Shown here: positions 3,449 to 63,424 of the stretch, one piece after another | How the letters are laid out: the number at the start of each line of letters is the position of its first letter | Position numbering within the stretch: the first letter of the stretch is position 1 | DNA from: Candidatus Portnoybacteria bacterium | GTDB lineage: Bacteria > Patescibacteriota > Minisyncoccia > Portnoybacterales > GWB1-42-6 | Assembly (NCBI GenBank): GCA_028688325.1 | Contig: JAQTYI010000004.1 | Coordinates: forward strand, 8,638-72,637 | Direction of reading: 5' to 3' | Length of the DNA: 64,000 bases | The notes under the pieces: generated by a model | What the model saw: the letters and a program-made list of their open reading frames with translations, nothing else | Told to the model about the DNA's origin: nothing | Databases searched by the model: none | Made by a program: the position numbers and the translations under genes

Positions 3449-3531
3449 GTCATCCCGGGCTTGACCCGGGATCCAGGCCCCTGGATTCCCGCTTTCAGTT
3501 TACCCCGCACTTGATGCGGGGCGGGAATGAC
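3449..3531. repeat. GTCAT-family element, CCCGGG-hairpin variant (reverse orientation of the 58541 copy)
   Basis: gtcatcccgggcttgacccggg...gcgggaatgac; its reverse complement matches 58541-58629. Confidence 0.65.
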
Positions 3532-10016: not shown

Positions 10017-11198
10017 TCATTGTCGTAATTTTCTCCTATGCAATTTCCGATAATACGATATCGCAAATCTGTGCGCTTCATTGCGGATGGCCTGAAAAAG
10101 CAGGCGTAAGTCCACCGGAAGTTTGCTAAGGAGCAGGGTCTTATCGCTATATATAGTATACAATTCCTCTTCTTTTTTGGCTAACGAGATAATAGCAGGT
10201 CGCGTATCGCTCGGCACTAAGCGATTGGCGAATTGCGATACGGCCGCGTTCAGCTGCGTCTGGCCGCCATCTATAAGCATAATGTCGGGCAGGGGCCATT
10301 CTTTGTGGTTCAGCCGCCTGGATAAAACTTCTTTTAGCATAGCGACATCATTGGCGCCCCGGACCGTTTTGATGCGGAATTTGCGGTAGTCGGATTTTTT
10401 GGGTTTATAGCCGTCAAAGACAATCATTGAGCCGGTGGCGCTGGTTCCCTGAATGTTGGAAATATCATAGGCCTCGATTCTTATCGGTTCACCGGCGTAG
10501 AGCCGGAGGAATTGTTTTAGGGTGTTAAGCGATTCGTGGTATTTTTTTAACCCCTCCTGCACCGTTTTCTTACAAAAAACGGCGCTTCCCCCCTTTGCAA
10601 AAGGGGGGTTGGGGGTTTTTTTTGACGATTGACGATTTGCGATTGGCGATTGGCCGTGCGCCGGGCACAAACCAAGGTGCCACTGCAAGCATGGCTTATC
10701 ATACGCATTTTTACAGGTGCGATAAGGCAGAATCTTGCGCAGGGCGCGCAAAACCCGTTTGAGCTCTTTGCCGTTGGTGAAGGGACCGATGGGGTCAGCT
10801 GTTAGCTTGTAGCTTTTAGCTTTTAGGTTATGGACAATCAGCACTCTCGGCCATTCGTCATCTGTAAAATTAACTCGTAAATAACTTTTATCGTCCCGCC
10901 ATTGGATATTATATTTTGGCGCATATTTTTTTATCAGCTGATCTTCCAATATCAGCGCATCTTTTTCATCGGCGGTCTTGATGAAATCAATGTCGGAAAT
11001 CCCTCCCAACCTCCCTTTTGCAAAGGGGGGAGCAGGGGGGTTAAATTTGCTTTGGCTGCTTGGAATAAAGTGCGAGCGCACGCGATTGCGCAAATTAACC
11101 GCTTTGCCGATATACAAAATCCGCCCCTGGGCGTCTTTGAATAAATAGACGCCGGGTTTTTGGGGAAGGGCTTTTATTTGTTTTTTTATTGTTGACAT
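10017..11198 (-). CDS. uvrC: Excinuclease ABC subunit C, compact form (GIY-YIG + Cys-rich + RNase H-like endonuclease; no C-terminal HhH region)
   Basis: GVYLFKDAQGRILYIGKAVNLRNRV GIY-YIG; CLQWHLGLCPAHG; DISNIQG...LIDGGQTQL...IRNEAHRFAI. Start set at MSTIKKQ. Confidence 0.8.
   Translation of the reverse strand: MSTIKKQIKALPQKPGVYLFKDAQGRILYIGKAVNLRNRVRSHFIPSSQSKFNPPAPPFAKGRLGGISDIDFIKTADEKDALILEDQLIKKYAPKYNIQWRDDKSYLRVNFTDDEWPRVLIVHNLKAKSYKLTADPIGPFTNGKELKRVLRALRKILPYRTCKNAYDKPCLQWHLGLCPAHGQSPIANRQSSKKTPNPPFAKGGSAVFCKKTVQEGLKKYHESLNTLKQFLRLYAGEPIRIEAYDISNIQGTSATGSMIVFDGYKPKKSDYRKFRIKTVRGANDVAMLKEVLSRRLNHKEWPLPDIMLIDGGQTQLNAAVSQFANRLVPSDTRPAIISLAKKEEELYTIYSDKTLLLSKLPVDLRLLFQAIRNEAHRFAISYYRKLHRRKLRQ
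10586..10616. repeat. Poly-C/poly-G hairpin element, in frame in uvrC (encodes TPNPPFAKGG)
   Basis: cccccctttgcaaaaggggggttggggg. Confidence 0.7.
10797..10827. repeat. CTAAAAGC tandem-repeat element, in frame in uvrC (encodes NLKAKSYKLTA)
   Basis: cagctgttagcttgtagcttttagcttttag, the reverse complement of the ctaaaa[g/a]c family. Confidence 0.55.
11001..11042. repeat. Poly-C/poly-G hairpin element, in frame in uvrC (encodes NPPAPPFAKGRLGG)
   Basis: ccctcccaacctcccttttgcaaaggggggagcagggggg. Confidence 0.7.
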
Positions 11199-11278
11199 AA
11201 TCAAGGTGGTGATATATCTTATCCATAAGAAGAATCGTAGCAAGAAGTTCTCAATAGTTCAATAAAAAGGAGGAAAAA

Positions 11279-11589: not shown

Positions 11590-11722
11590 ATCAACATCCG
11601 ATGTCCCAAATATTTAGCATTTTGTATTCTGGACATCAGATGTCAAAATATTGGACTTAATCCAGCGATGTCCGACAACCTAAAATTCGAAATTCTTTAA
11701 TATTTGAGTTGTCGGACATCAA
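11590..11722. promoter_or_regulatory. Array of four GATGTC-N-GACATC / GACATC-N-GATGTC palindromic sites in the uvrA leader
   Basis: acatccgatgt, gacatcagatgtc, gatgtccgacaac, gttgtcggacatc. The last two form a 13-bp perfect inverted repeat ending 8 nt before the uvrA ATG. Confidence 0.5.
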
Positions 11723-11727
11723 AATAC

Positions 11728-14715
11728 ATGAAAGGTGAGTTTATAAAAATCAAAGGCGCCAGAGTCCACAATCTCAAAAATGTTTCCTTGGATATCCCCA
11801 AGGGCAAGTTGGTGGTGATAACCGGTCTTTCCGGTTCGGGAAAATCGTCTTTGGCGTTTGATACCATCTACGCCGAAGGCCAGCGCCGGTATGTTGAGAG
11901 TTTATCCGCCTATGCCAGGCAGTTTTTGGGCGTGATGGATAAGCCCGATGTCGATTCCATCGACGGCTTGTCGCCTGCCATTGCCATTGACCAGCGAAGT
12001 GTTTCCAAGAATCCGCGTTCTACCGTGGGCACAATAACGGAGATATACGATTATATGCGTTTGCTTTTTTCCCGCGTGGGCAAACCGTATTGCCCCGAAT
12101 GCGGCAAAATTATTTCCCGCCAGAGCCCCAGCGCCGTGGCGGAAGCTGTCTTAAAATATCCCGCGGGCGCGCAAATAACGATCTTGGGTCCGCTGGTGCG
12201 CGCCAAAAAAGGCGAACATCATGGAATTTTGGAGCAGGCGCAAAAAGCGGGATTCGTCAATGTGCGCGTTGATGGCATCGTGCACCGCCTGGAAGAGGCG
12301 ATGGGTTTGGAATTGGATAAGCAAAAAAAGCACAGCATCGAAGTTGTGGTTGACCGAGTGGAAGTGCCCAGTGCCGCGGACAAGGATGAGCGCGCCAGAA
12401 TAGTTGATTCCATAGAAACAGCTTTGAAAGTTGGTAAGGGAATGATGATAGTGAGCAAGAATCAGGATTCTGGGTCCCGGGTCAAGCCCGGGACGACATC
12501 ATTTTTAAAAAATGATGTCGTTTTTTCCGAGCTTTTTGCCTGCGAAAAATGCGGCATTTCTCTGCCGGAGATCGAGCCGCGCCTTTTTTCGTTCAACAGC
12601 CCTTTCGGCGCCTGCCCCGAATGCCAGGGACTGGGCAGTAAACTGGAAATCGATCCTAAATTGGTTATGCCAAACCCGCGCCTAACTTTGGCGGAAGGCG
12701 TGATCCGCCCTTGGGCCACGGCTTCGCACCGCGTGGGCCGGCAGGGATATTATTACTGGCTTATTAGCAAGTTGGCCGAGGCCAATGAATTTTCTTTGAA
12801 CACTCCCGCGGGGGAGTTGCCGAAAGATGTTGTTAAAAAAATCCTCTATGGCGATTCGAAAAATGACTACGAAGGCGTTATTCCGAATCTGGAGCGGCGC
12901 TGGAAAGAAACCGATTCTGATTTCGCGCGCGCGGAGATAGAAAAATATATGCAGGTGCGCCAATGCCCGTTGTGCCACGGCGCCAGGTTGAAACGCGAAG
13001 CGCTGGCGATACGAATAAATTCACTTAACCCCCCTGGGCCCCCCTTTAAAAGGGGGGTTGGGGGGTTAAATATCGCCGATGTTTCCGCGATGAGCATCGA
13101 GGCGGCCAAAAAATACTTTGAGGATCTGAAATTATCCGCCAACGACGCCGAAATTGCTAAGCCCGTTGTCAAAGAAATCCTAAAGCGGTTGAAATTCTTG
13201 CTCGATGTGGGGCTTGACTATCTGACCATCGGCCGTGAATCGACCACTCTTTCGGGCGGAGAAGCGCAAAGAATTCGCCTGGCCACGCAGATCGGTTCCG
13301 GGCTTTCCGGCGTGGTTTATATTTTGGACGAGCCGTCCATCGGCTTGCACCAGCGGGACCTCGCGCGCCTCATCGCCACGCTTTTCCAGTTGCGGGACCT
13401 GGGCAACACTGTGATAGTGGTTGAGCACGACGAGCAGACCATCCTGGCGGCGGATTGGATTGTTGATGTGGGGCCGGGAGCGGGAATTCATGGCGGAAAA
13501 ATAATTTTTGCCGGCACCCCCGCGCAGCTTTTAAAATCCGATTGTTTGACCGGGCAATATTTGTCAGGGAAAAAATCCGTGTCATCAGGTGGTCATCCTG
13601 ACCCCGCAGCGGCGGGGTCAGGATCTAAAAAAGATTCTTCGGCCTCCGGCCTCAGAATGACAGATAAAAATAAGGAACACTTATGGGGAGAACCTGGATC
13701 CCGGGTCAAGCCCGGGATGACAAAGTCATCGGGTTCTTTGCAGATAATCGGCGCCACGGAGCACAACCTGAAAAATATCGATGTAAAAATACCATTGCAG
13801 AAATTTGTGGCCGTGACGGGCGTTTCCGGCTCAGGCAAAAGCACGCTGGTTAATGATATTCTGGGCAAATCTTTAAGCCGCGATTTTCACGGCGCTCATC
13901 AACAACCAGGCGCGCATAAGGAAATTTTTGGCACGGATAATCTGGATAAAGTCATAATCGTGGACCAGTCGCCCATCGGCCGCACGCCCCGTTCCAACCC
14001 CGCCACTTATACTGGCATATTTACGCCCATTCGCGATATTTTTTCCCAAACGCAAGAGGCCAAAATTCGCGGCTACAGCGCGGGGCGCTTCAGTTTTAAT
14101 GTTAAAGGCGGCCGGTGTGAAAATTGCGAAGGCGACGGCGTCAAAAAGATAGAAATGTATTTTTTGCCCGATGTTTATATCGAGTGCGAGGTCTGCCATG
14201 GCCAGCGATATAATAAAGAAACACTGGAGATAGAGTATAAAGGCAAGAATATCGCGCAGATATTGGCGATGCCGGTTGAAGAGGGCTATGATTTTTTCAA
14301 GAATCTTCCGGCGTTGGAGCAAAAATTGCGCACACTCAAAGAAGTCGGTTTGGGGTATATGAAATTGGGGCAATCTTCAACAACTCTTTCGGGCGGCGAA
14401 GCGCAACGCATAAAACTGGCCACGGAACTGGCGCGGCGCGACACCGGCAACACATTATATATATTGGATGAGCCCACAACCGGCCTGCATTTTGACGATA
14501 TCCGGCGATTACTCACAGTTTTGCGCGAACTTGTCAAGAGAGGCAATTCCGTGTTAGTAATTGAGCATAATTTGGATGTCATCGCGAGCACCGACTGGGT
14601 GATAGACCTGGGGCCGGAAGGCGGGGAAAAGGGCGGTTATGTTGTGGCGCAGGGAACGGTTGAAGAGATTATCAAGAGCAAGAAGAGCTATACGGGAAAA
14701 TATTTGAAGGAATAA
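11728..14715 (+). CDS. uvrA: Excinuclease ABC subunit A, with three in-frame repeat-derived insertions
   Basis: Two ABC ATPase halves, [10 protein letters not shown], zinc-finger CxxC motifs. Start set at [16 protein letters not shown]; ~1000 aa against a typical ~940-950. Confidence 0.9.
12464..12528. repeat. GTCAT-family module (cccgggtcaagcccggg hairpin plus gacgacatcattttt/aaaaatgatgtcgt palindrome), in frame in uvrA
   Basis: Encodes [19 protein letters not shown]; the same module occurs at 3449 and 13694. Confidence 0.6.
13027..13067. repeat. Poly-C/poly-G hairpin element, in frame in uvrA (encodes [14 protein letters not shown])
   Basis: aacccccctgggcccccctttaaaaggggggttggggggtt. Confidence 0.7.
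13580..13735. repeat. Composite GTCAT-family insertion (~55 codons), in frame in the uvrA inter-domain linker
   Basis: gtcatcctgaccccgcagcggcggggtcagg...cctcagaatgac plus ctggatcccgggtcaagcccgggatgac; encodes [13 protein letters not shown]...[11 protein letters not shown]. Confidence 0.65.
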
Positions 14716-20240: not shown

Positions 20241-21413
20241 ATGAATGGAAGTCAAAAACATCTAAATCATATAGACGCCATTAATCTTGGGTCATATTAT
20301 ACCCCAGGTATTATTGTTGATTTGGCTTATTCTATTTTGCAAAAAAATATCAAAGATATTAAAGATTTTTCAATATTAGATTCTTCTTGTGGTTACGGTT
20401 CTTTTTTGATAAGAAACAACATTGTGAAAAGATTGATTGGAGCCGATATCGATCAAAAAGCCATTTCTGAAGCAAAAAAAATAATTAGCGGAGTTGATTT
20501 TATCTGTCAAAATTCTCTTTTGAATGTTAGTCGTTCAAGTTTAATGATTAAGAATGATGAAAAAATTATAACCATAGGAAATCCTCCATATAACGATACA
20601 ACATCTATAATTCGTAATTCCATTAAAGATACTTCCATTCAGGATAAAATCGATGCCGACATAAAAACTAGGGATTTAGGCATGTCATTTTTATTGTCTT
20701 ACGACAAACTAAAAGCGGATTATGTTTGTGTTTTGCATCCTTTATCATATTTAATCAAAAAAGCCAATTTTGCCCTGCTTTCAAAATTCGCTAAAAATTA
20801 TAAATTAATTGACGGAATAATCATAAGCAGTCACGAATTTTCTGATACTTCTCGCGGAATGGCTTTTCCGATCTTGATCGCCCTTTATGAGAGGGATGAA
20901 AAAGGAATGGACTATAATTATATTCAAAATTATCAGTTCAAGGTGAAGGACGATGGTATTTTCCGTCTAAAGGATTTTGATACTATAGTCAACTATGTTC
21001 AAAAATATCCAAATAAAAAATTTTTAAATAAAAATGACAAGCCAGTAGCAAGGTTTTGGACTTTGAGAGATATAAATGCACTTAAACGAAACAGGACTTT
21101 TATTGATGAAGATACTTATAATACCGTTTATGTGTTAATGGAAAAATTGCCCTATTATTGCTACATCGATATTTTCAAACAATATACAGATAGAATGCCT
21201 TATTTCATTGGCAATTGTGATGTGATAATTGATAATGAAAAATTCGGAAAAATAAAGGAGTGCTTTATTGCCCAAAGCGTTCACACAAATCCGGTATTAA
21301 GAAATAAGTTTAGGTTTAGAGAAATTCCGGATGCAAAATTTAAAATAGATAACTATTTTAAAGAGTTGTTAGAAAATAAATTTGGAAAAAAACATGCCGC
21401 AAATTTTAATTAA
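20241..21413 (+). CDS. N6-adenine DNA methyltransferase, gamma class (YTP...FxGxG...NPPY), with C-terminal target-recognition region
   Basis: LGSYYTPGIIVDL; ILDSSCGYGSFL (motif I); GNPPY (motif IV); very AT-rich. Confidence 0.7.
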   Translation: MNGSQKHLNHIDAINLGSYYTPGIIVDLAYSILQKNIKDIKDFSILDSSCGYGSFLIRNNIVKRLIGADIDQKAISEAKKIISGVDFICQNSLLNVSRSSLMIKNDEKIITIGNPPYNDTTSIIRNSIKDTSIQDKIDADIKTRDLGMSFLLSYDKLKADYVCVLHPLSYLIKKANFALLSKFAKNYKLIDGIIISSHEFSDTSRGMAFPILIALYERDEKGMDYNYIQNYQFKVKDDGIFRLKDFDTIVNYVQKYPNKKFLNKNDKPVARFWTLRDINALKRNRTFIDEDTYNTVYVLMEKLPYYCYIDIFKQYTDRMPYFIGNCDVIIDNEKFGKIKECFIAQSVHTNPVLRNKFRFREIPDAKFKIDNYFKELLENKFGKKHAANFN

Positions 21414-22155
21414 AAAAGACGAACATAAAATAAAAATACCAATTTTATTAACTGCTGTTAGTGGAAAAATTCGCATTAAAAACCGATCAATTTTGAATGA
21501 ATACGGAACGCCAGTTGCAGTTAAAAGAGATGGTTTCTTATTAAGCAATTATGTCGAGTGGCAAATTGGCTACGATGTGGTTAAAAAGGAAACAGAAAAG
21601 CTCGCAGAGTCATCACTACCCGAAACTGAATTTATTGGGGCAAATGGAAAGGTCAAGGCGCTTTATGAATTGTCAGAGTATATCTGGTATTTTTATAAAT
21701 GGAACATTATCACCAGAGAAGAATTAGAGAGCGTTATCGCTTATCTTGATTCGATACAAGACCAGAATTTAATTGATAATAATTCCGAGTTGCAAATTGA
21801 CCGCAGTCATCCAATTGAGAAAAATATAAATGGATTTGATTTTGAATATACTCAAGTTAAATACCCTCTATTGATTTACAAATTTAATGGATACGAAATT
21901 ATTACCGAAATAAAAATTACCGAAAAGCAATATGCGGTTGGCACACAGCCAATGTTGTATTTATGTTTTCCAATCACAGAGTTAAAATCAGAAGTTAATT
22001 TAATTGGACGATGCGCCGAAATAAAAGAAATTGCCTATTTTGAAATTTCGGAAAGTAATATTAAAGTATTTTTGGAAATGCTAAAAATGTTTGGCATTTT
22101 ATCTAAAAACCACAAACACGATATTCTACAGATTATTAATACGATTTTAGAATAA
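21382..22155 (+). CDS. Hypothetical protein overlapping the methyltransferase by 32 nt; candidate restriction endonuclease or partner
   Basis: Operon overlap; AT-rich; possible D...EIK nuclease-like motif (weak). Confidence 0.4.
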   Translation: MEKNMPQILIKKDEHKIKIPILLTAVSGKIRIKNRSILNEYGTPVAVKRDGFLLSNYVEWQIGYDVVKKETEKLAESSLPETEFIGANGKVKALYELSEYIWYFYKWNIITREELESVIAYLDSIQDQNLIDNNSELQIDRSHPIEKNINGFDFEYTQVKYPLLIYKFNGYEIITEIKITEKQYAVGTQPMLYLCFPITELKSEVNLIGRCAEIKEIAYFEISESNIKVFLEMLKMFGILSKNHKHDILQIINTILE

Positions 22156-25492: not shown

Positions 25493-25650
25493 GTCATTCC
25501 GAGCCCCGCATCCAAAATCATAGATTTTTGGTGCGGGATAAACTCCGCGAGGAATCTCGCGGGAGCGTAGCGACCCGCGCAACGGTCTCGCATACGCGAG
25601 AGATCCTTCACGGAGTTTATACTGAACGAAGTGAATGTGTTCAGGATGAC
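25493..25650. repeat. GTCAT-family element (full length); its right TIR contains the dnaG start codon
   Basis: Left end identical to 1486; right end ...gtgttcaggATGACc. Confidence 0.7.
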
Positions 25651-27505
25651 CAAAGCATTGGACGGAGTGATTGATCAAATAAAACAAAAACTCGATATTT
25701 TAGAAGTGTTGGGGGAATATATCAAACTCACCAAGGCCGGCCGGAACCATAAGGCGAAGTGCCCCTTTCATGCCGAGCGCTCGGCTTCCTTTATGGTTTC
25801 GCCAGAGCGCCAGATTTGGCATTGTTTTGGGTGCGGCCTGGGCGGGGATATTTTCGGATTCGTGATGAAAATAGAGGGCGTGGAATTTGGCGACGCGCTG
25901 CGTCTTTTGGCGCGGCGAGCCGGCGTGACATTGAAAAAACAGGATCCGCAGGTCCAATCGCAAAAAAAGCGGCTATACGATATTTGCGAGCTGGCCGCCA
26001 AATTTTTTGAAACGCAATTGCATAAAACCGCAGCGGGTAAAAAAGCGTATGAATATCTTGCCGAACGGGGAATGAAGGCACAAACAATAAAGGACTGGCG
26101 GCTGGGTTGGGCACACGATGATTGGCGCGCGTTGGGAGATTTTTTGAAAAGCAGGGGATACAAGGAGGATGAGATAGAAACAGTCGGGTTGATAATCAAA
26201 AAAGATTATAACTCCCCCCAACCCCCCATTAATTTAAGAGGGGGTGAGCGGAGCGGGGGGGCGTTAGGCCATTATTATGATAGATTCAGGAGTAGAATAA
26301 TTTTTCCGATTGCAGACAGCCAGGGCCAGGTGATAGCGTTCGGCGGCAGGATATTCGGCGAGGCGGCCAAAAAAGAAGATGTGGCCAAATATCTCAATTC
26401 GCCCCAGACCCCGCTTTATGATAAAAGCAGCGTTCTTTACGGATTGAACAAGGCCAAAAACGATATCCGCGTCAAAGACCAATGTGTTATAGTCGAAGGG
26501 TATATGGATTTGATAATGTCGCACCAGGCCGGCATTGCCAACGCGGTGGCGTCTTCCGGCACGGCCTTGACCGAAAACCATCTGGCAATTATTGGTCGCT
26601 ATGCTAAAACCCTGGCTATGGCGTTCGATTCGGACGAGGCCGGCGGTATGGCCACGCGCCGCAGCATCGATCTGGCGCTGAGGCGGGATTTCAATGTCAA
26701 AGTCATATTGATGGATGAAAAAGATCCGGCCGATATCGTCAAAAAGGATCCGGCGGAATGGCCGAAATTGATAGAAAACGCCCAGAGCATAATGGATTTT
26801 TATTTCACTTACGCTTTTGCCAAGCGCGACGCCAAATCGGTTGAAGGCAAGCGCGAGATAAGAAAAATCTTATTGACAGCCATAAAATCCATCGCCAGCA
26901 AGACCGAGCAGGGCGAATGGATAAACGAATTGGCGCGCCGTTTGCGCGCGGACGAGCGGGACCTTTTGGCCGATATGAAGAAAATAAAATTGGAAACGCC
27001 GGAGGATTATGGCGGCGCGCCAAACAGCGAACCCGCGCAGATTATCGCCAAATCCCGGCTTGAGGGGCTCGAAGAAAGATTTCTGGGGTTGTGTCTGAGC
27101 CATCCGAAACATTTTTCCGAGATCACCGCTGACGAAAGCGACTTTCATAATGACGATTTGGCGCAAATTTTTAAAGGGTTAAAGAAGCTGTCGGGTAAAA
27201 AAGAAGGCAATGAGCTGCTGGTGTCGCTCCGTAAAGAATTAAAGCCGGAATTGCAGATAAAGATCGACTACCTCATATTCCAGATTGAGCAGCACGAGAG
27301 GGACGAAAAAGACATCATCGCGGAAATCGCTTCTTGCATCCTGGAACTTAAGCTTTTGCGGTTAAGGAATAAATTGACGGCCTTGAGCTTTGACATCAAA
27401 GACGCCCAGCAAGGCAAAGATAAAAATAAACTGGGAAAACTTTTAAAACAATTCGATCAGACATCTTCCGATTTAAACAGCATAACAAACACAGATGCCA
27501 GGTAG
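25646..27505 (+). CDS. dnaG: DNA primase DnaG with an in-frame poly-C element insertion
   Basis: CPFHAERSASFMVSPERQIWHCFGCGLGGD zinc-binding; TOPRIM EGYMDLI...DSDEAG. Confidence 0.85.
   Translation: MTKALDGVIDQIKQKLDILEVLGEYIKLTKAGRNHKAKCPFHAERSASFMVSPERQIWHCFGCGLGGDIFGFVMKIEGVEFGDALRLLARRAGVTLKKQDPQVQSQKKRLYDICELAAKFFETQLHKTAAGKKAYEYLAERGMKAQTIKDWRLGWAHDDWRALGDFLKSRGYKEDEIETVGLIIKKDYNSPQPPINLRGGERSGGALGHYYDRFRSRIIFPIADSQGQVIAFGGRIFGEAAKKEDVAKYLNSPQTPLYDKSSVLYGLNKAKNDIRVKDQCVIVEGYMDLIMSHQAGIANAVASSGTALTENHLAIIGRYAKTLAMAFDSDEAGGMATRRSIDLALRRDFNVKVILMDEKDPADIVKKDPAEWPKLIENAQSIMDFYFTYAFAKRDAKSVEGKREIRKILLTAIKSIASKTEQGEWINELARRLRADERDLLADMKKIKLETPEDYGGAPNSEPAQIIAKSRLEGLEERFLGLCLSHPKHFSEITADESDFHNDDLAQIFKGLKKLSGKKEGNELLVSLRKELKPELQIKIDYLIFQIEQHERDEKDIIAEIASCILELKLLRLRNKLTALSFDIKDAQQGKDKNKLGKLLKQFDQTSSDLNSITNTDAR
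26212..26261. repeat. Poly-C/poly-G hairpin element, in frame in dnaG (encodes SPQPPINLRGGERSGGAL)
   Basis: ctccccccaaccccccattaatttaagagggggtgagcggagcggggggg. Confidence 0.7.
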
Positions 27506-38184: not shown

Positions 38185-38982
38185 ATGGATTTTTCATATG
38201 CAATCATTTTGGGCGTCGTTGAGGGAATAACGGAGTTTTTGCCGATCTCTTCAACAGGGCACCTGATGCTGACGGCGCGTCTTTTGGATCTGGGCCAAAG
38301 CGAATTCTTGAAAAGTTTTGAGATCATCATCCAGCTGGGCGCGATCTTATCGGTGGTAGCTTTATACTGGCGGGAGCTTTTGGTCAAATGGGAGACAATG
38401 AAGCGCGTAGTCGTTGCTTTTGTTCCAACGGGGATTATCGGCTTGGTGCTGTATAAAATCGTTAAAGCTTATTTGCTGGGCAGTGAAACGGTGGTTTTGT
38501 GGAGTATGTTTTTGGGCGGATTATTTTTATTAGCGTTTGAATATTGGTACGGAAAAAAATCCCCCCTAACCCCCCTTTTACAAAGTGGGGAAAATAATAA
38601 ATTGGAAAATATCTCCTACGGCCAGGCCGCGGCGCTGGGTTTGTTTCAATCAATTGCGATAATTCCCGGCGTTTCGCGCTCGGCCGCCACAATTCTGGGG
38701 GGCTTATTCATGGGAATTTCTCGCAAAACAATCGTTGAATTTTCTTTTTTGCTGGCTGTGCCGACAATGCTGGCGGCCACCCTCCTCGATCTTTTTAAAA
38801 GCGCCGGTCAGTTTTCTTTGTCTCAGTGGGATTTTTTGGCTGTAGGTTTTTTTGTTTCTTTCGTTACGGCTTTGACTTCCATCAAGTTTCTGCTCAATTT
38901 TATCAAGAAGCATTCCTTTATCGCCTTTGGCGCTTATCGCATGGCGATTGCCTTGATTTTTTGGTTTTTTATTGTAAGATGA
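38185..38982 (+). CDS. uppP: Undecaprenyl-diphosphatase UppP/BacA with in-frame poly-C half-element
   Basis: VVEGITEFLPISSTGHLML. Confidence 0.85.
   Translation: MDFSYAIILGVVEGITEFLPISSTGHLMLTARLLDLGQSEFLKSFEIIIQLGAILSVVALYWRELLVKWETMKRVVVAFVPTGIIGLVLYKIVKAYLLGSETVVLWSMFLGGLFLLAFEYWYGKKSPLTPLLQSGENNKLENISYGQAAALGLFQSIAIIPGVSRSAATILGGLFMGISRKTIVEFSFLLAVPTMLAATLLDLFKSAGQFSLSQWDFLAVGFFVSFVTALTSIKFLLNFIKKHSFIAFGAYRMAIALIFWFFIVR
38560..38590. repeat. Poly-C element (left half plus degenerate right), in frame in uppP (encodes SPLTPLLQSGEN)
   Basis: tcccccctaaccccccttttacaaagtgggg. Confidence 0.55.
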
Positions 38983-55307: not shown

Positions 55308-56411
55308 GTGAACCGATCACAACTAAACAAATTTATAACCTACCTGCAAAAAAGCGACTGGTCGGTATTTGGACCGGTTTTTACGACCGAGAAAGTCGAG
55401 GAGCTTTCACCGTTTTTGTCGGCACATATGCCTTCGGCTGTAAAAAAGACCGGCCAGATATTGATAAAGGGGATATCAAATCCCGACGAACTGAACCTGG
55501 ACGGGCAATTGCCTTTTTATTCCTTCAAACGGTTTTTTGTGCCGGAAAAAGAGGGGCTTTTTGATTACCAAAACAATAAATTAAGAGATAAAAAATCAGT
55601 TTACCCTGAGCGCAGTCAAAGGGCGCTGGTCGGCATGAATATTTTGGACATGAAAGCCGTGAATCTTTACGACCAGGTTTTTGAGAAAGACCCGTATTAC
55701 CAGGCCAGGCGGCGCAATATCCTCATCGTCGGCTATTCGTTGACGCCAGAAATAGAAAATAATATTTTTGAACACAAGTATGAAGAGGATATTCTGGAAC
55801 ATTTGCCTTTTGACATTTTTTTGGCAGATTATAACGCCCCCTCGTCCCGCGAACTGCGGAACTCGCCCCCTCTTAAATTAAGAGGGGGGTCGGGGGGGTT
55901 ATATAAAGTTTTTACTGGAAGCATAAAAGGCCAACGGATTCTGGAGCACTTTGGCTATAAGGACTATGAGCACATCCAGTTCAGCGGACCGATCAAGGAG
56001 GGGGAGGCGGACAAAAGGATGGAGCGCTTGCGCGACCGGTTAAAAAATCACCATAATTTAAAAATCTGGGAGGAATTGGGCCAGCGCTGCATCGAATGCG
56101 GCAAGTGCACCCTGGCCTGCCCAACCTGCTTTTGCTTTCGCATAGACGATGCTCCCGCGATCAAAGAAAACTTGGGCGAGCGTTCGCGCTGCTGGGATTC
56201 CTGCTATTATCAGGAATTTTCGGAAGTCGTCGGCGGGCATAAATTTCTGGACAACACCGCCAAACGCATCCATTTTTGGTATTTCCATAAATTCGCCAGG
56301 ATTCCCGATGAATTTAATTTCATGGGCTGCGTGGGCTGCCATCGCTGCGCCGCGGTCTGCCCGGTGGGAATAGATATAAATAAAGTGTTGGAGGACATAG
56401 AAAATTCTTAG
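55308..56411 (+). CDS. hydB: Sulfhydrogenase beta-like subunit (HydB/AsrA-like) with two 4Fe-4S motifs and an in-frame poly-C element
   Basis: CIECGKCTLACPTCFC and CVGCHRCAAVCP; ~367 aa like archaeal HydB. Confidence 0.55.
   Translation: MNRSQLNKFITYLQKSDWSVFGPVFTTEKVEELSPFLSAHMPSAVKKTGQILIKGISNPDELNLDGQLPFYSFKRFFVPEKEGLFDYQNNKLRDKKSVYPERSQRALVGMNILDMKAVNLYDQVFEKDPYYQARRRNILIVGYSLTPEIENNIFEHKYEEDILEHLPFDIFLADYNAPSSRELRNSPPLKLRGGSGGLYKVFTGSIKGQRILEHFGYKDYEHIQFSGPIKEGEADKRMERLRDRLKNHHNLKIWEELGQRCIECGKCTLACPTCFCFRIDDAPAIKENLGERSRCWDSCYYQEFSEVVGGHKFLDNTAKRIHFWYFHKFARIPDEFNFMGCVGCHRCAAVCPVGIDINKVLEDIENS
55862..55900. repeat. Poly-C/poly-G hairpin element, in frame in hydB (encodes SPPLKLRGGSGGL)
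   Basis: ctcgccccctcttaaattaagaggggggtcgggggggtt. Confidence 0.65.
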
Positions 56412-57692: not shown

Positions 57693-58628
57693 ATGCAAAA
57701 CAAAGGATTATTATTGGTTTTTTCCACCGCCATCATTTCCGGCGTTTCGGTTTTCATCAATAAATTCGGCGTGGGAATGAATAACCCGGATATTTTCACT
57801 TTCGCCAAAAATACGGCGGTAGCTGTTTTGTTTACGGCTGTTATCTTCTTTTTAAAAGACAGGAAGGCCTTATTTCAATTAAACAAAAACCAGTGGTTGC
57901 AATTGCTGGCGCTGGGTTTGATCGGCGGCTCGATTCCGTTCCTGCTTTTTTTCAAGGGCTTGGCCTTAACAAGCGCGGCTCAGGGCGCTTTTATCCATAA
58001 GACAATGTTCATTTTTGTGGTAATTCTGGCGGCCTTCATCTTAAAAGAGAAGATCAACAAAAATTTTATTATCGGCGGCTTGCTTTTGCTTCTCGGCAAT
58101 CTAATATTGCTTAAGGGCCTTCATTTTTCGTTCGGCTTGGGCGACGCGCTGGTTCTTGTCGCGGTCTTGTTCTGGGCGATGGAAAATGTCTTGGCTAAAT
58201 ATGTCCTGCGAGAAATGCCGGGCAATATCGCGGCCTGGGGGCGGATGTTTTTCGGCTCGATATTCATCCTGGCTTATTTATCCTTTACGGGACAGGCATC
58301 GCAAGTTTTGAATCTCAACTCGGCGCAAATCGGATGGATTGCCATAACTTCCGCCTTGCTTTTCGGCTACACGATAACCTGGTATAACGGATTAAAGACC
58401 GTTTCCGTTTCGATCGCCACCACGATCTTGCTCTTTGGCCTACCCATAACAACGGCGCTGTCGGCGATCTATGCTGGAAAAATAACCCCGCAAGACGCCT
58501 GGTCTATGATATTATTACTACTTGGCGTATTTATTATTGTGTCATTCCCGCCCCGCATCAAGCGCGGGGTAAACTGGAAGCGGGAATCCAGGATCCTGGA
58601 TTCCCCCGCAACTGCGGGGCGGAAATAA
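57693..58628 (+). CDS. EamA/DMT-family transporter; last ~28 codons encoded by a GTCAT-family element
   Basis: 10 TM helices; C-terminus VSFPPRIKRGVNWKRESRILDSPATAGRK is repeat-derived. Confidence 0.65.
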   Translation: MQNKGLLLVFSTAIISGVSVFINKFGVGMNNPDIFTFAKNTAVAVLFTAVIFFLKDRKALFQLNKNQWLQLLALGLIGGSIPFLLFFKGLALTSAAQGAFIHKTMFIFVVILAAFILKEKINKNFIIGGLLLLLGNLILLKGLHFSFGLGDALVLVAVLFWAMENVLAKYVLREMPGNIAAWGRMFFGSIFILAYLSFTGQASQVLNLNSAQIGWIAITSALLFGYTITWYNGLKTVSVSIATTILLFGLPITTALSAIYAGKITPQDAWSMILLLLGVFIIVSFPPRIKRGVNWKRESRILDSPATAGRK

Positions 58629-63232: not shown

Positions 63233-63274
63233 ATTAGCTACGAATACGGATTTTTTACGAATATACGGATATTT

Positions 63275-63380
63275 TTCCCCTCTTTCGTAAAGAGGGGTTA
63301 GGGGAGATTTAAAAGCGCTTTATTTATCAAATAAAGCATTCTTAAATCCCTCCCAACCTCCCTTTAAAAAGGGAGGGGTA
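63275..63380. repeat. Two poly-C/poly-G hairpin elements in a nested palindromic intergenic complex
   Basis: ccctctttcgtaaagaggggttagggg and tccctcccaacctccctttaaaaagggaggggta, flanked by atacggat/atccgtat. Confidence 0.6.
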
Positions 63381-63424
63381 TAAATCCGTATATCTGCAAA
63401 TAATCTATCATCCGTAGAGATAAT

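Follow-up and report, generated by a model that had tools for sequence, protein, structure and literature searches.

Why should one hairpin of C- and G-runs recur in several genes of a small genome, mostly translated as Pro-Pro...Gly-Gly? The question arises from a stretch of 64,000 nucleotides from Candidatus Portnoybacteria bacterium (contig JAQTYI010000004.1, positions 8,638 to 72,637; hereafter the window), in which an initial annotation noted eight copies of a poly-C/poly-G hairpin, six of them within open reading frames (ORFs), and suggested selection for a single reading frame. Our analysis leads to a different answer. We consider it likely that the copies belong to a dispersed G/C-block repeat of triplex type, a variant of the BoxC/PIT/TM class, which inserted secondarily and survives within genes as Pro/Gly-rich linkers.

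Direct reading of the sites located all eight copies, at or a few bases from where they had been placed, and they proved to be one repeated palindromic element. Its polarity is constant: in all eight copies an arm rich in C comes first, followed by a loop region of T- and A-rich parts and then by an arm rich in G. The string CCCCNNNNCCCC occurs 16 times in the window against 2.2 expected, and CCCCC-N5-16-GGGGG gives seven matches at four loci where 0.7 would be expected; with the polarity reversed (GGGGG...CCCCC) the window has no match. A generic scan of the window for hairpins with a homopyrimidine arm recovered seven of the eight copies and no others (20 shuffles gave 0–3, about 1), so the list of copies is complete.

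The element had been described as a palindrome of ~40–50 bp. This is true of three copies, which have four blocks; the other five have three, that is, the hairpin plus one extra C- or G-block, frequently with AAAT before or ATTT after. Copy 3 (13025–13069), the best preserved, reads TTAA-C6-TGGG-C6TTT-A-AAAG6-TT-G6-TTAA, folds as DNA at -18.5 kcal/mol and forms a 14-residue insert in uvrA (11704–14715, plus strand). Copy 2 (10997–11046) has the form AAAT-CCCTCCC-AA-CCTCCCTTTT-GC-AAAGGGGGG-AGCA-GGGGGG-TTAAAT, the outer block CCCTCC being the mirror of the inner CCTCCC, and is translated as FNPPAPPFAKGRLGG in uvrC (10017–11243, minus strand), a short form of the gene found in the Candidate Phyla Radiation (CPR), with a GIY-YIG and an RNaseH-type endonuclease domain. 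The same gene holds the three-block copy 1 (10588–10615; peptide TPNPPFAKGG), in which the hairpin CCCCCCTTT-GCA-AAAGGGGGG is followed by TT, a third block GGGGG and then T8. Copy 4 (26210–26261), in the primase gene dnaG (25631–27505, plus strand), has four blocks, an extended loop and a spacer of 10 nt, C6-AA-C6-ATTAATTTAAGA-G5-TGAGCGGAGC-G7, and encodes NSPQPPINLRGGERSGG; its type of spacer (cgagcgtagcgg) recurs in copies of other phyla. The remaining genic copies have three blocks. Copy 5 (38557–38590), AAAT-C6-TAA-C6TTT-TAC-AAAGTGGGG, lies in uppP/bacA (38185–38982, plus strand; BacA/UppP), and copy 6 (55866–55902), CCCCCTCTTAA-AT-TTAAGAGGGGG-(G)TC-G7-TTAT, lies in the gene of a 4Fe-4S dicluster (Fer4_22) protein (55308–56411, plus strand), where it reads NSPPLKLRGGSGG. 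All five gene assignments come from Pfam.

Copies 7 and 8 are intergenic and in opposite orientation. Copy 7 (63277–63310) reads CCCCTCTTT-CGT-AAAGAGGGG-TT-AGGGGAG-ATTT, its third block GGGGAG being the mirror of GAGGGG, and copy 8 (63344–63378) reads AAAT-CCCTCCC-AA-CCTCCCTTT-AAAA-AGGGAGG. Together they form an inverted doublet within a composite palindrome of 157 bp (63249–63405), which has a hairpin at its centre and ATATACGGAT/ATCCGTATAT as its outer arms, and which amounts to an inverted repeat with 77-nt arms that are 73% complementary. The segment 63260–63395 is predicted to fold into a cloverleaf (-33.5 kcal/mol, z = -8.3). Folding was done with ViennaRNA, which models Watson–Crick hairpins only. 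The stability z-scores of single-copy hairpins were weak (-0.8 to -3.9, the latter for the DNA fold of copy 6) and are of no use as evidence, because shuffled C- and G-runs pair anyway. A G-quadruplex or i-motif was rejected as the structure, each strand having at most two to three G-runs; a hairpin is favoured because the complementary run adjoins.

Comparison with orthologues indicates that the copies entered their host genes secondarily. At 63–86% identity, orthologues of uvrA, uvrC, dnaG and uppP are without the inserts (in uvrC at both sites), which are therefore derived rather than conserved ancestral sequence. UvrA is 100% identical to a protein from a metagenome-assembled genome of Candidatus Portnoybacteria (Patescibacteria/CPR). 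In an alignment of 27 UvrA sequences the 14-residue insert occurs in the window only; three relatives have other inserts there, and 22 of the 26 aligned orthologues have none. Two syntenic relatives (L241 and L243) lack both the uvrA and the dnaG insert, the empty uvrA site being visible at the DNA level. At the site of copy 2 in uvrC the orthologues of L241, L243 and a third relative, L244, read FYKGDL, which corresponds to a net gain of about nine codons in the window. At the site of copy 1, L241 has no insert, L243 has a short unrelated stretch and L244 a decayed form of the insert. The UppP loop insert is not in most orthologues (257 aa), and relatives at 63–77% identity have variant forms in the same loop. 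In DnaG, the Pfam DNAG_N match is split into two stretches around copy 4. The copy in the Fe-S gene is, by analogy, presumably a secondary insertion as well.

The initial annotation proposed that such insertions give flexible loops, and the structural model of UvrA supports a location in permissive, disordered ones: in an AlphaFold2 prediction of moderate quality (mean predicted local distance difference test, pLDDT, 64) the insert residues 436–444 are coil with pLDDT <50, and the other repeat-derived inserts of UvrA are placed likewise.

The arrangement of the blocks relates the element to a known class. Intramolecular triplexes (H-DNA-type triads) are recognised in sequence by mirror-symmetric homopurine/homopyrimidine blocks beside a hairpin. 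In copies with an interrupted hairpin arm, the third block mirrored that arm in 17 cases (plus two ambiguous ones) and repeated it directly in one; copies 2, 7 and 8 of the window are of the mirror type. For example, a CCCCTC...GAGGGG hairpin is accompanied by AAAT-CTCCCC or by GGGGAG-ATTT. The third block is the telling feature; a plain hairpin does not need it to be mirrored. By direct reading, seven of the eight window copies also fall within the settings of ITxF, the triplex-motif finder of Holder (2015), which looks for three homopurine/homopyrimidine blocks with stems of 6–15 nt and loops of 1–6 nt.

BoxC/PIT/TM repeats were recognised some 30 years ago and have been regarded as intergenic curiosities of enterobacteria and cyanobacteria; they reportedly go back to the work of Bachellier in the 1990s and of Hoyne and Maher in 2000. 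To our knowledge they have neither an accepted function nor an accepted mode of spread. The TM_ECO/BoxC/PIT form is CCCTCNCCC-N3-6-GGGNGAGGG-N3-GGGNGAGGG (PMC4666352), and Holder et al. (2015) described palindromic forms and, over 262 proteobacterial genomes, 3610 copies (PMC4666352). TM repeats were linked to local genomic instability, and many G/C-rich motifs were found in cyanobacteria too (PMC4666352). Judged on sequence, the architecture of the present element is the BoxC/PIT/TM layout. Both kinds of repeat are dispersed units of ~35–45 nt with a pyrimidine arm, a loop of 3–6 nt, a purine arm, a spacer of 2–4 nt and a mirror third block; both have the complement on the other strand, occur in both orientations, and form four-block palindromes and inverted pairs; and both are widely spread, with patchy copy number between genomes and a transposase not found nearby.

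The differences from TM_ECO are equally clear. The blocks are homopolymer runs with A/T extensions (C6TTT / AAAG6 / G6ATTT) instead of CCCTCNCCC / GGGNGAGGG. TM_ECO is strictly intergenic in E. coli K-12, with no mobility genes nearby (PMC4666352), whereas six of the eight window copies lie in-frame within essential genes. A BoxC-type query found matches in 5426/5426 complete E. coli genomes, at a median of 17 places each, and no annotated feature underlay any of the six matches listed. The taxonomic range is also wider than that known for BoxC/PIT/TM, taking in CPR, Nitrospirota, Chloroflexota, Desulfobacterota and Mu-like phages. A possible bridge is provided by L244, whose uvrA has, at the same site as the window insert, the form CCTCACCC-TA-CCCCTCTCC...GGAGAGG; the presence of this CCTCACCC/CCCCTCTCC form in a Portnoybacteria relative connects the TM_ECO-like and the C6/G6 variants. 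We thus place the element in a class that is known but poorly understood, as a new variant built of homopolymer runs, and not as TM_ECO itself.

We searched for the element beyond the window. The inner hairpin CCCCCCTTT-N1-5-AAAGGGGGG was present at a minimum of 120 loci in IMG/VR, and the flanks of the viral matches gave the consensus AAAT-C6/7-N2-3-C6TTT-N3-AAAG6-N2-3-G6/7-ATTT, very often with one outer block only. The three-block pattern was found at no fewer than 120 loci in a collection of species-representative genomes from many phyla. The matches listed include Desulfobacterota and other Deltaproteobacteria, Nitrospirota, Beta- and Gammaproteobacteria, Chloroflexota, Methylomirabilota, Acidobacteriota and Binatia, as well as single metagenome-assembled genomes of a Bacteroidota-related Kapaibacterium and of Trueperaceae. 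They also include cultured isolates (Chromatium okenii, Lysobacter, Iodobacter arcticus, Thiorhodococcus) and a complete Luteimonas genome; Luteimonas sp. R10 (NZ_CP141262.1) and Lysobacter Root916 are examples of genomes rich in the element. Among these genome loci most copies are intergenic and about one-third lie inside crude ORF calls; intergenic copies are found between convergent gene ends in 34 cases versus 12 between divergent ones. Units are often paired as inverted doublets 12–45 nt apart, of which copies 7 and 8 of the window are an instance.

The viral loci listed belong largely to Mu-like phages, judged from recurring portal, MuF-like, GemA-like, terminase and transposase proteins; the portal, MuF-like, GemA-like and transposase families each recur at 10–29 of these loci. 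Several viral contigs have multiple copies, some within structural genes, and a copy in a portal protein gene is in-frame (peptide NPPQPPFAKGGE). The consensus gave no BLAST match among GenBank phages, and among plasmids two matches, both in Planktothrix. One, on Planktothrix agardhii plasmid NZ_LR882946.1 (22299–22335), is a three-block copy, AACCCCCCCTAACCCCCCCTTATCAAAGGGGGG, in-frame in a RefSeq pglX methyltransferase gene of a bacteriophage exclusion (BREX) system, where it reads EPPLTPPYQRGE; the other lies within a gene for a 'putative restriction enzyme' on a second plasmid. Literature searches for the C6 form by its exact DNA and peptide sequences returned irrelevant matches only, and those on repeats of CPR/Patescibacteria returned nothing relevant. 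Separately, we noted that loci of differing phyla or classes (L161 and L183; L172 and L174) have ~15–25 nt of similarity beyond the unit, for instance GGGGGATTTCGAGARGYTGSATAAAATCCCCCCCGACCCCCC...AGATTKGAYTMTTAAGTT, which hints at larger composite elements containing it.

How, then, does the element spread? The strongest competing explanation, which we nevertheless consider unlikely, is a non-autonomous element driven by a transposase: a miniature inverted-repeat transposable element (MITE), or a repetitive extragenic palindromic (REP) sequence or REPIN (its doublet form) moved in trans by a REP-associated tyrosine transposase (RAYT) or an IS200/IS605-type HUH enzyme that each genome encodes elsewhere. 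REP/REPIN sequences, too, are imperfect palindromes of 20–40 bp that occur as singlets and inverted doublets with a bias to gene 3' ends, which matches the spacing of the doublets and the excess of convergent ends described above. An enzyme could recognise or cut at the conserved AAAT tag beside the hairpin, and a sequence so strongly conserved from phylum to phylum suggests that a protein partner acts on it specifically. However, the conserved end is AAAT/ATTT and not a GTAG or CGTC tag, and the consensus is common to several phyla whereas REP sequences are species-specific. Pfam searches found no enriched family and no transposase in 95 ORFs flanking copies at the 120 genome loci listed, and no transposase, integrase or RAYT in the 10 window ORFs scanned (out of 56). 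When 1889 ORFs from 240 loci were clustered all against all, only Mu-like phage structural families were recovered, and no linked mobility gene. Holder et al. had a similar result for TM_ECO (PMC4666352). The element is also present in Mu-like phages and CPR genomes. We know of no RAYT described in either.

At the junctions, no target-site duplication and no consistent flank were found in the filled/empty pairs compared, several of which show partial replacement instead. The TTAA...TTAA flanks of the uvrA copy were considered as a target-site duplication and rejected, since their spacing is 41 nt against a net insertion of 42 nt and other filled/empty pairs show partial replacement. At the copy 2 site, FAKGRLGG has taken the place of ancestral FYKGDL; the element's ...GGGGATTTGTAC in a phage terminase-like protein sits over ancestral GDLY; another 'empty' site keeps CCCC-TACA-GGGG; and the same site in related proteins can hold differing variants. 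Filled sites thus often overlap similar pre-existing sequence without duplication, and for that reason we lean to templated copying, which fits the junction pattern somewhat better than cut-and-paste does. A second copy would serve as the template when DNA is repaired or a fork is restarted at the structure, to which we give a little short of an even chance; spread by a trans-acting HUH/RAYT-like nuclease is a possibility to which we give rather less than even weight. A sequence-specific nuclease would better account for the sequence conservation across phyla.

A functional cis-element, such as one that terminates or attenuates transcription, stabilises mRNA or binds a protein of the IHF/HU type, with the intragenic copies incidental, is improbable. 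The clustering of intergenic copies at gene 3' ends and the T8 after copy 1 would suit it, and binding of a global regulator was proposed for a similar repeat of Geobacter (PMC2700814). On the other hand, six of the eight window copies lie within genes, and a search of the whole window with Rfam returned three tRNAs only, with no family at the gathering threshold for the repeat. An intrinsic terminator in particular does not suit the polarity: the T-run is in the loop side (C6TTT...AAAG6) and not after the stem, the reverse polarity is absent, and the sole trailing T-run, that of copy 1, is inside uvrC. PIT elements had no promoter or terminator activity according to earlier work, as cited in PMC4666352. 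Integron attC sites, CRISPR repeats and terminators were ruled out on sequence and polarity.

The proposal of the initial annotation, that the element is selected for one frame encoding Pro-Pro...Gly-Gly loops and favours repair and replication genes, possibly with slippage or phase variation, is in our view very doubtful. In its favour, five of the six intragenic window copies read PP...GG, and G6/C6 tracts could slip in principle. The claim that four of the six host genes act on DNA needs rewording, since four copies lie in three such genes (uvrA, uvrC and dnaG). The single frame does not hold within the window: uppP is read in a different phase, as KKSPLTPLLQSGE (SPLTPLLQSGE), and in dnaG the outer block is translated as SPQ. 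Furthermore, translation of each copy in all six frames shows that on the coding strand the host frame is the sole stop-free frame for the uvrA, dnaG, uppP and Fe-S gene copies, the others being shut by TTAA flanks and TAA-containing loops, and frame identity in these four copies is therefore forced. It is true that no copy adds a stop codon, but this is automatic for copies within intact ORFs.

Across the family no frame is privileged. In 57 non-redundant copies from other genomes, each lying 30 residues or more within an ORF of 300 aa or longer, frame use was 20:16:21, although the ORF calls are crude and come in part from GC-rich genomes; over these copies 113/171 frames are stop-free. Such roughly equal use of the frames is the outcome that the initial annotation had itself named as refuting a single selected frame. 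In-ORF copies elsewhere encode PPFxKGG, SPLxPLxQRG and PPLxKGG. The common Pro/Gly look is therefore probably explained by base composition, and the frame by survivorship. Of the suggested selection for stop-free flexible loops, what stands is that only stop-free, length-compatible copies are seen; a selected frame is not. Nor is a special link to repair or replication supported, as hosts elsewhere are unrelated to it (Mu-like phage portal and GemA proteins, PglX, many housekeeping neighbours), and copies in other phyla are mostly intergenic. Tracts of 6 nt are short for phase variation, and the host genes are essential. Finally, that there is no element at all, the pattern being due to an ancestral low-complexity protein motif, to G/C runs arisen by chance or to poly-G errors of sequencing or assembly, has next to no probability: poly-G artefacts are known in two-colour Illumina data and Pro/Gly-rich protein loops are common, but the shuffle controls, the orthologues without inserts, the intergenic copies and the same structured consensus in isolates, a complete genome and a RefSeq coding sequence all speak against it.

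The crudeness of the frame tally is one of several points that weigh against a secondarily inserted repeat of the BoxC/PIT/TM type. The TM_ECO consensus (CCCTCNCCC / GGGNGAGGG) is not in the window copies, which have C6/G6 runs or CCCTCC/CCTCCC instead. We infer homology with BoxC, as opposed to convergence, from the intermediate forms and the shared layout. The dnaG copy, with its 12-nt loop and 10-nt spacer, lies beyond the ITxF loop limits, and the AAAT/ATTT ends match an optimal third strand only in part. For TM_ECO itself, triplex formation was seen with single strands in vitro only, and none in vivo (PMC4666352). Lastly, it is difficult to see how the sequence could be conserved across phyla unless a partner acts on it specifically, and the neighbouring ORFs scanned yielded no such partner.

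With these reservations, a dispersed repeat that inserted secondarily would account for the observations as follows. The unit is [AAAT-C6]-N2-4-[C6TTT]-loop-[AAAG6] with an optional mirror fourth block, [G6-ATTT], which completes the palindrome; it is about 30–50 bp long and non-coding. As a single strand (for example 5'-CCCCCCTTTGCAAAAGGGGGGTTGGGGGGATTT-3') it could fold to a hairpin and potentially to a three-stranded structure. As the window is about 82% coding, most insertions would be expected to fall in genes, and the survivors would be copies in surface loops with a length that keeps the frame and a stop-free host frame. C-runs would then be read as Pro, G-runs as Gly, and TTT/AAA as Phe, Leu or Lys, so that any open frame would give a Pro/Gly-rich flexible linker. 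Such insertions may be tolerated since runs of C, G, T or A seldom create stop codons. The genic share of the copies (6/8) is close to the coding fraction of the window, which suggests near-random insertion and weak purifying selection.

What is new here is the homopolymer-run variant with mirror-block architecture, common to many phyla, CPR bacteria and Mu-like phages, and its in-frame residence in the essential genes uvrA, uvrC, dnaG and uppP, where filled and empty alleles provide natural material for studying insertion. For annotation, peptides of the PPFxKGG and SPLTPLLQRGE type in CPR and phage proteins should be regarded as repeat-derived linkers and not as functional motifs. A bolder proposal, which we consider quite unlikely, would make the C6/G6 unit a pan-bacterial, transposase-independent, structure-driven selfish DNA that spreads by templated repair or fork restart at partly similar sites, is transferred between phyla by Mu-like phages, and is a major source of Pro/Gly-rich loops in the essential proteins of gene-dense, drift-prone CPR genomes.

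Two further systems resemble the element. The 'class 4 predicted global regulator binding sites' of Geobacter metallireducens (Aklujkar et al. 2009, PMC2700814, Fig. S6) have an outer C-block, an optional GC mini-hairpin as spacer, a C-block, a loop and a G-block, and form inverted pairs; the mini-hairpin recalls the spacer of the dnaG copy. Their blocks, however, are CCCTCACCC / CCCTCTCCC, no in-frame coding copies were described, and the authors proposed IHF/HU (global-regulator) sites without a test (PMC2700814). Rickettsia palindromic elements (Ogata et al. 2000), as outlined in the summary of PMC10969869, are selfish palindromes that lie in-frame in unrelated protein-coding (housekeeping) genes of a reduced genome, in surface regions and not in orthologues. 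The in-frame behaviour of the present element in this CPR genome is analogous to theirs. In contrast, the Rickettsia elements are there described as about 100–150 bp long, Rickettsia-specific and AT-rich, with a longer conserved peptide, while ours has 30–50 bp, G/C blocks and many phyla; judged by these descriptions the two are distinct, and no sequence relationship is evident.

UvrA of CPR relatives accumulates several unrelated repeat families at several sites, and the window gene itself has in-frame copies of at least three repeat families besides copy 3. C/G-block peptides were seen in 8/120 UvrA homologues at four or more sites, which appear to be hot spots of insertion or loops unusually tolerant of it. 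Orthologues P0002, P0005 and P0021 (alignment A1, columns 551–580), P0012, P0016, P0008 and P0041 have C/G-block inserts, and one UvrA loop carries differing inserts of this kind by lineage. A second small palindromic repeat, TCCCGGGTCAAGCCCGGGA(T/C)GAC, occurs at 12475–12498 and 13699–13722 in uvrA and as the reverse complement at 3452–3468. It is in-frame twice in UvrA, with the peptide GSRVKPG(T/M)T, in a coil of low pLDDT, and most orthologues are without it.

Further repeat families were noted at 13588–13662 (uvrA), 3503–3531 and 58540–58625; among them are GTCATCCTGACCCCGC-AGCG-GCGGGGTCAGGAT, which gives a 12-residue peptide, and GATTCTTCGGCCTCCGGCCTCAGAATGAC. Units ending in ...GCGGGG are found close to 3503 and in the 3'-terminal part of the EamA gene. 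In relatives, the UvrA linker that corresponds to 13588–13662 holds related peptides, SHPELSEGS... and VIPAKAGIH.... Two linkers of uvrC (10621–10655 and 10797–10829) contain short in-frame, tandem-like oligomer repeats, TGACGATTGACGATTTGCGATTGGCGATTGGC and AGCTGTTAGCTTGTAGCTTTTAGCTTTTAGG, which are translated as ...SPIANRQSS... and ...NLKAKSYKLTAD...; the first is common to L244. Elsewhere in the window, the segment 20001–22000, which spans the ORFs 20241–21413 and 21382–22155, has a GC content of 0.317 against about 0.46 elsewhere and may be foreign DNA.

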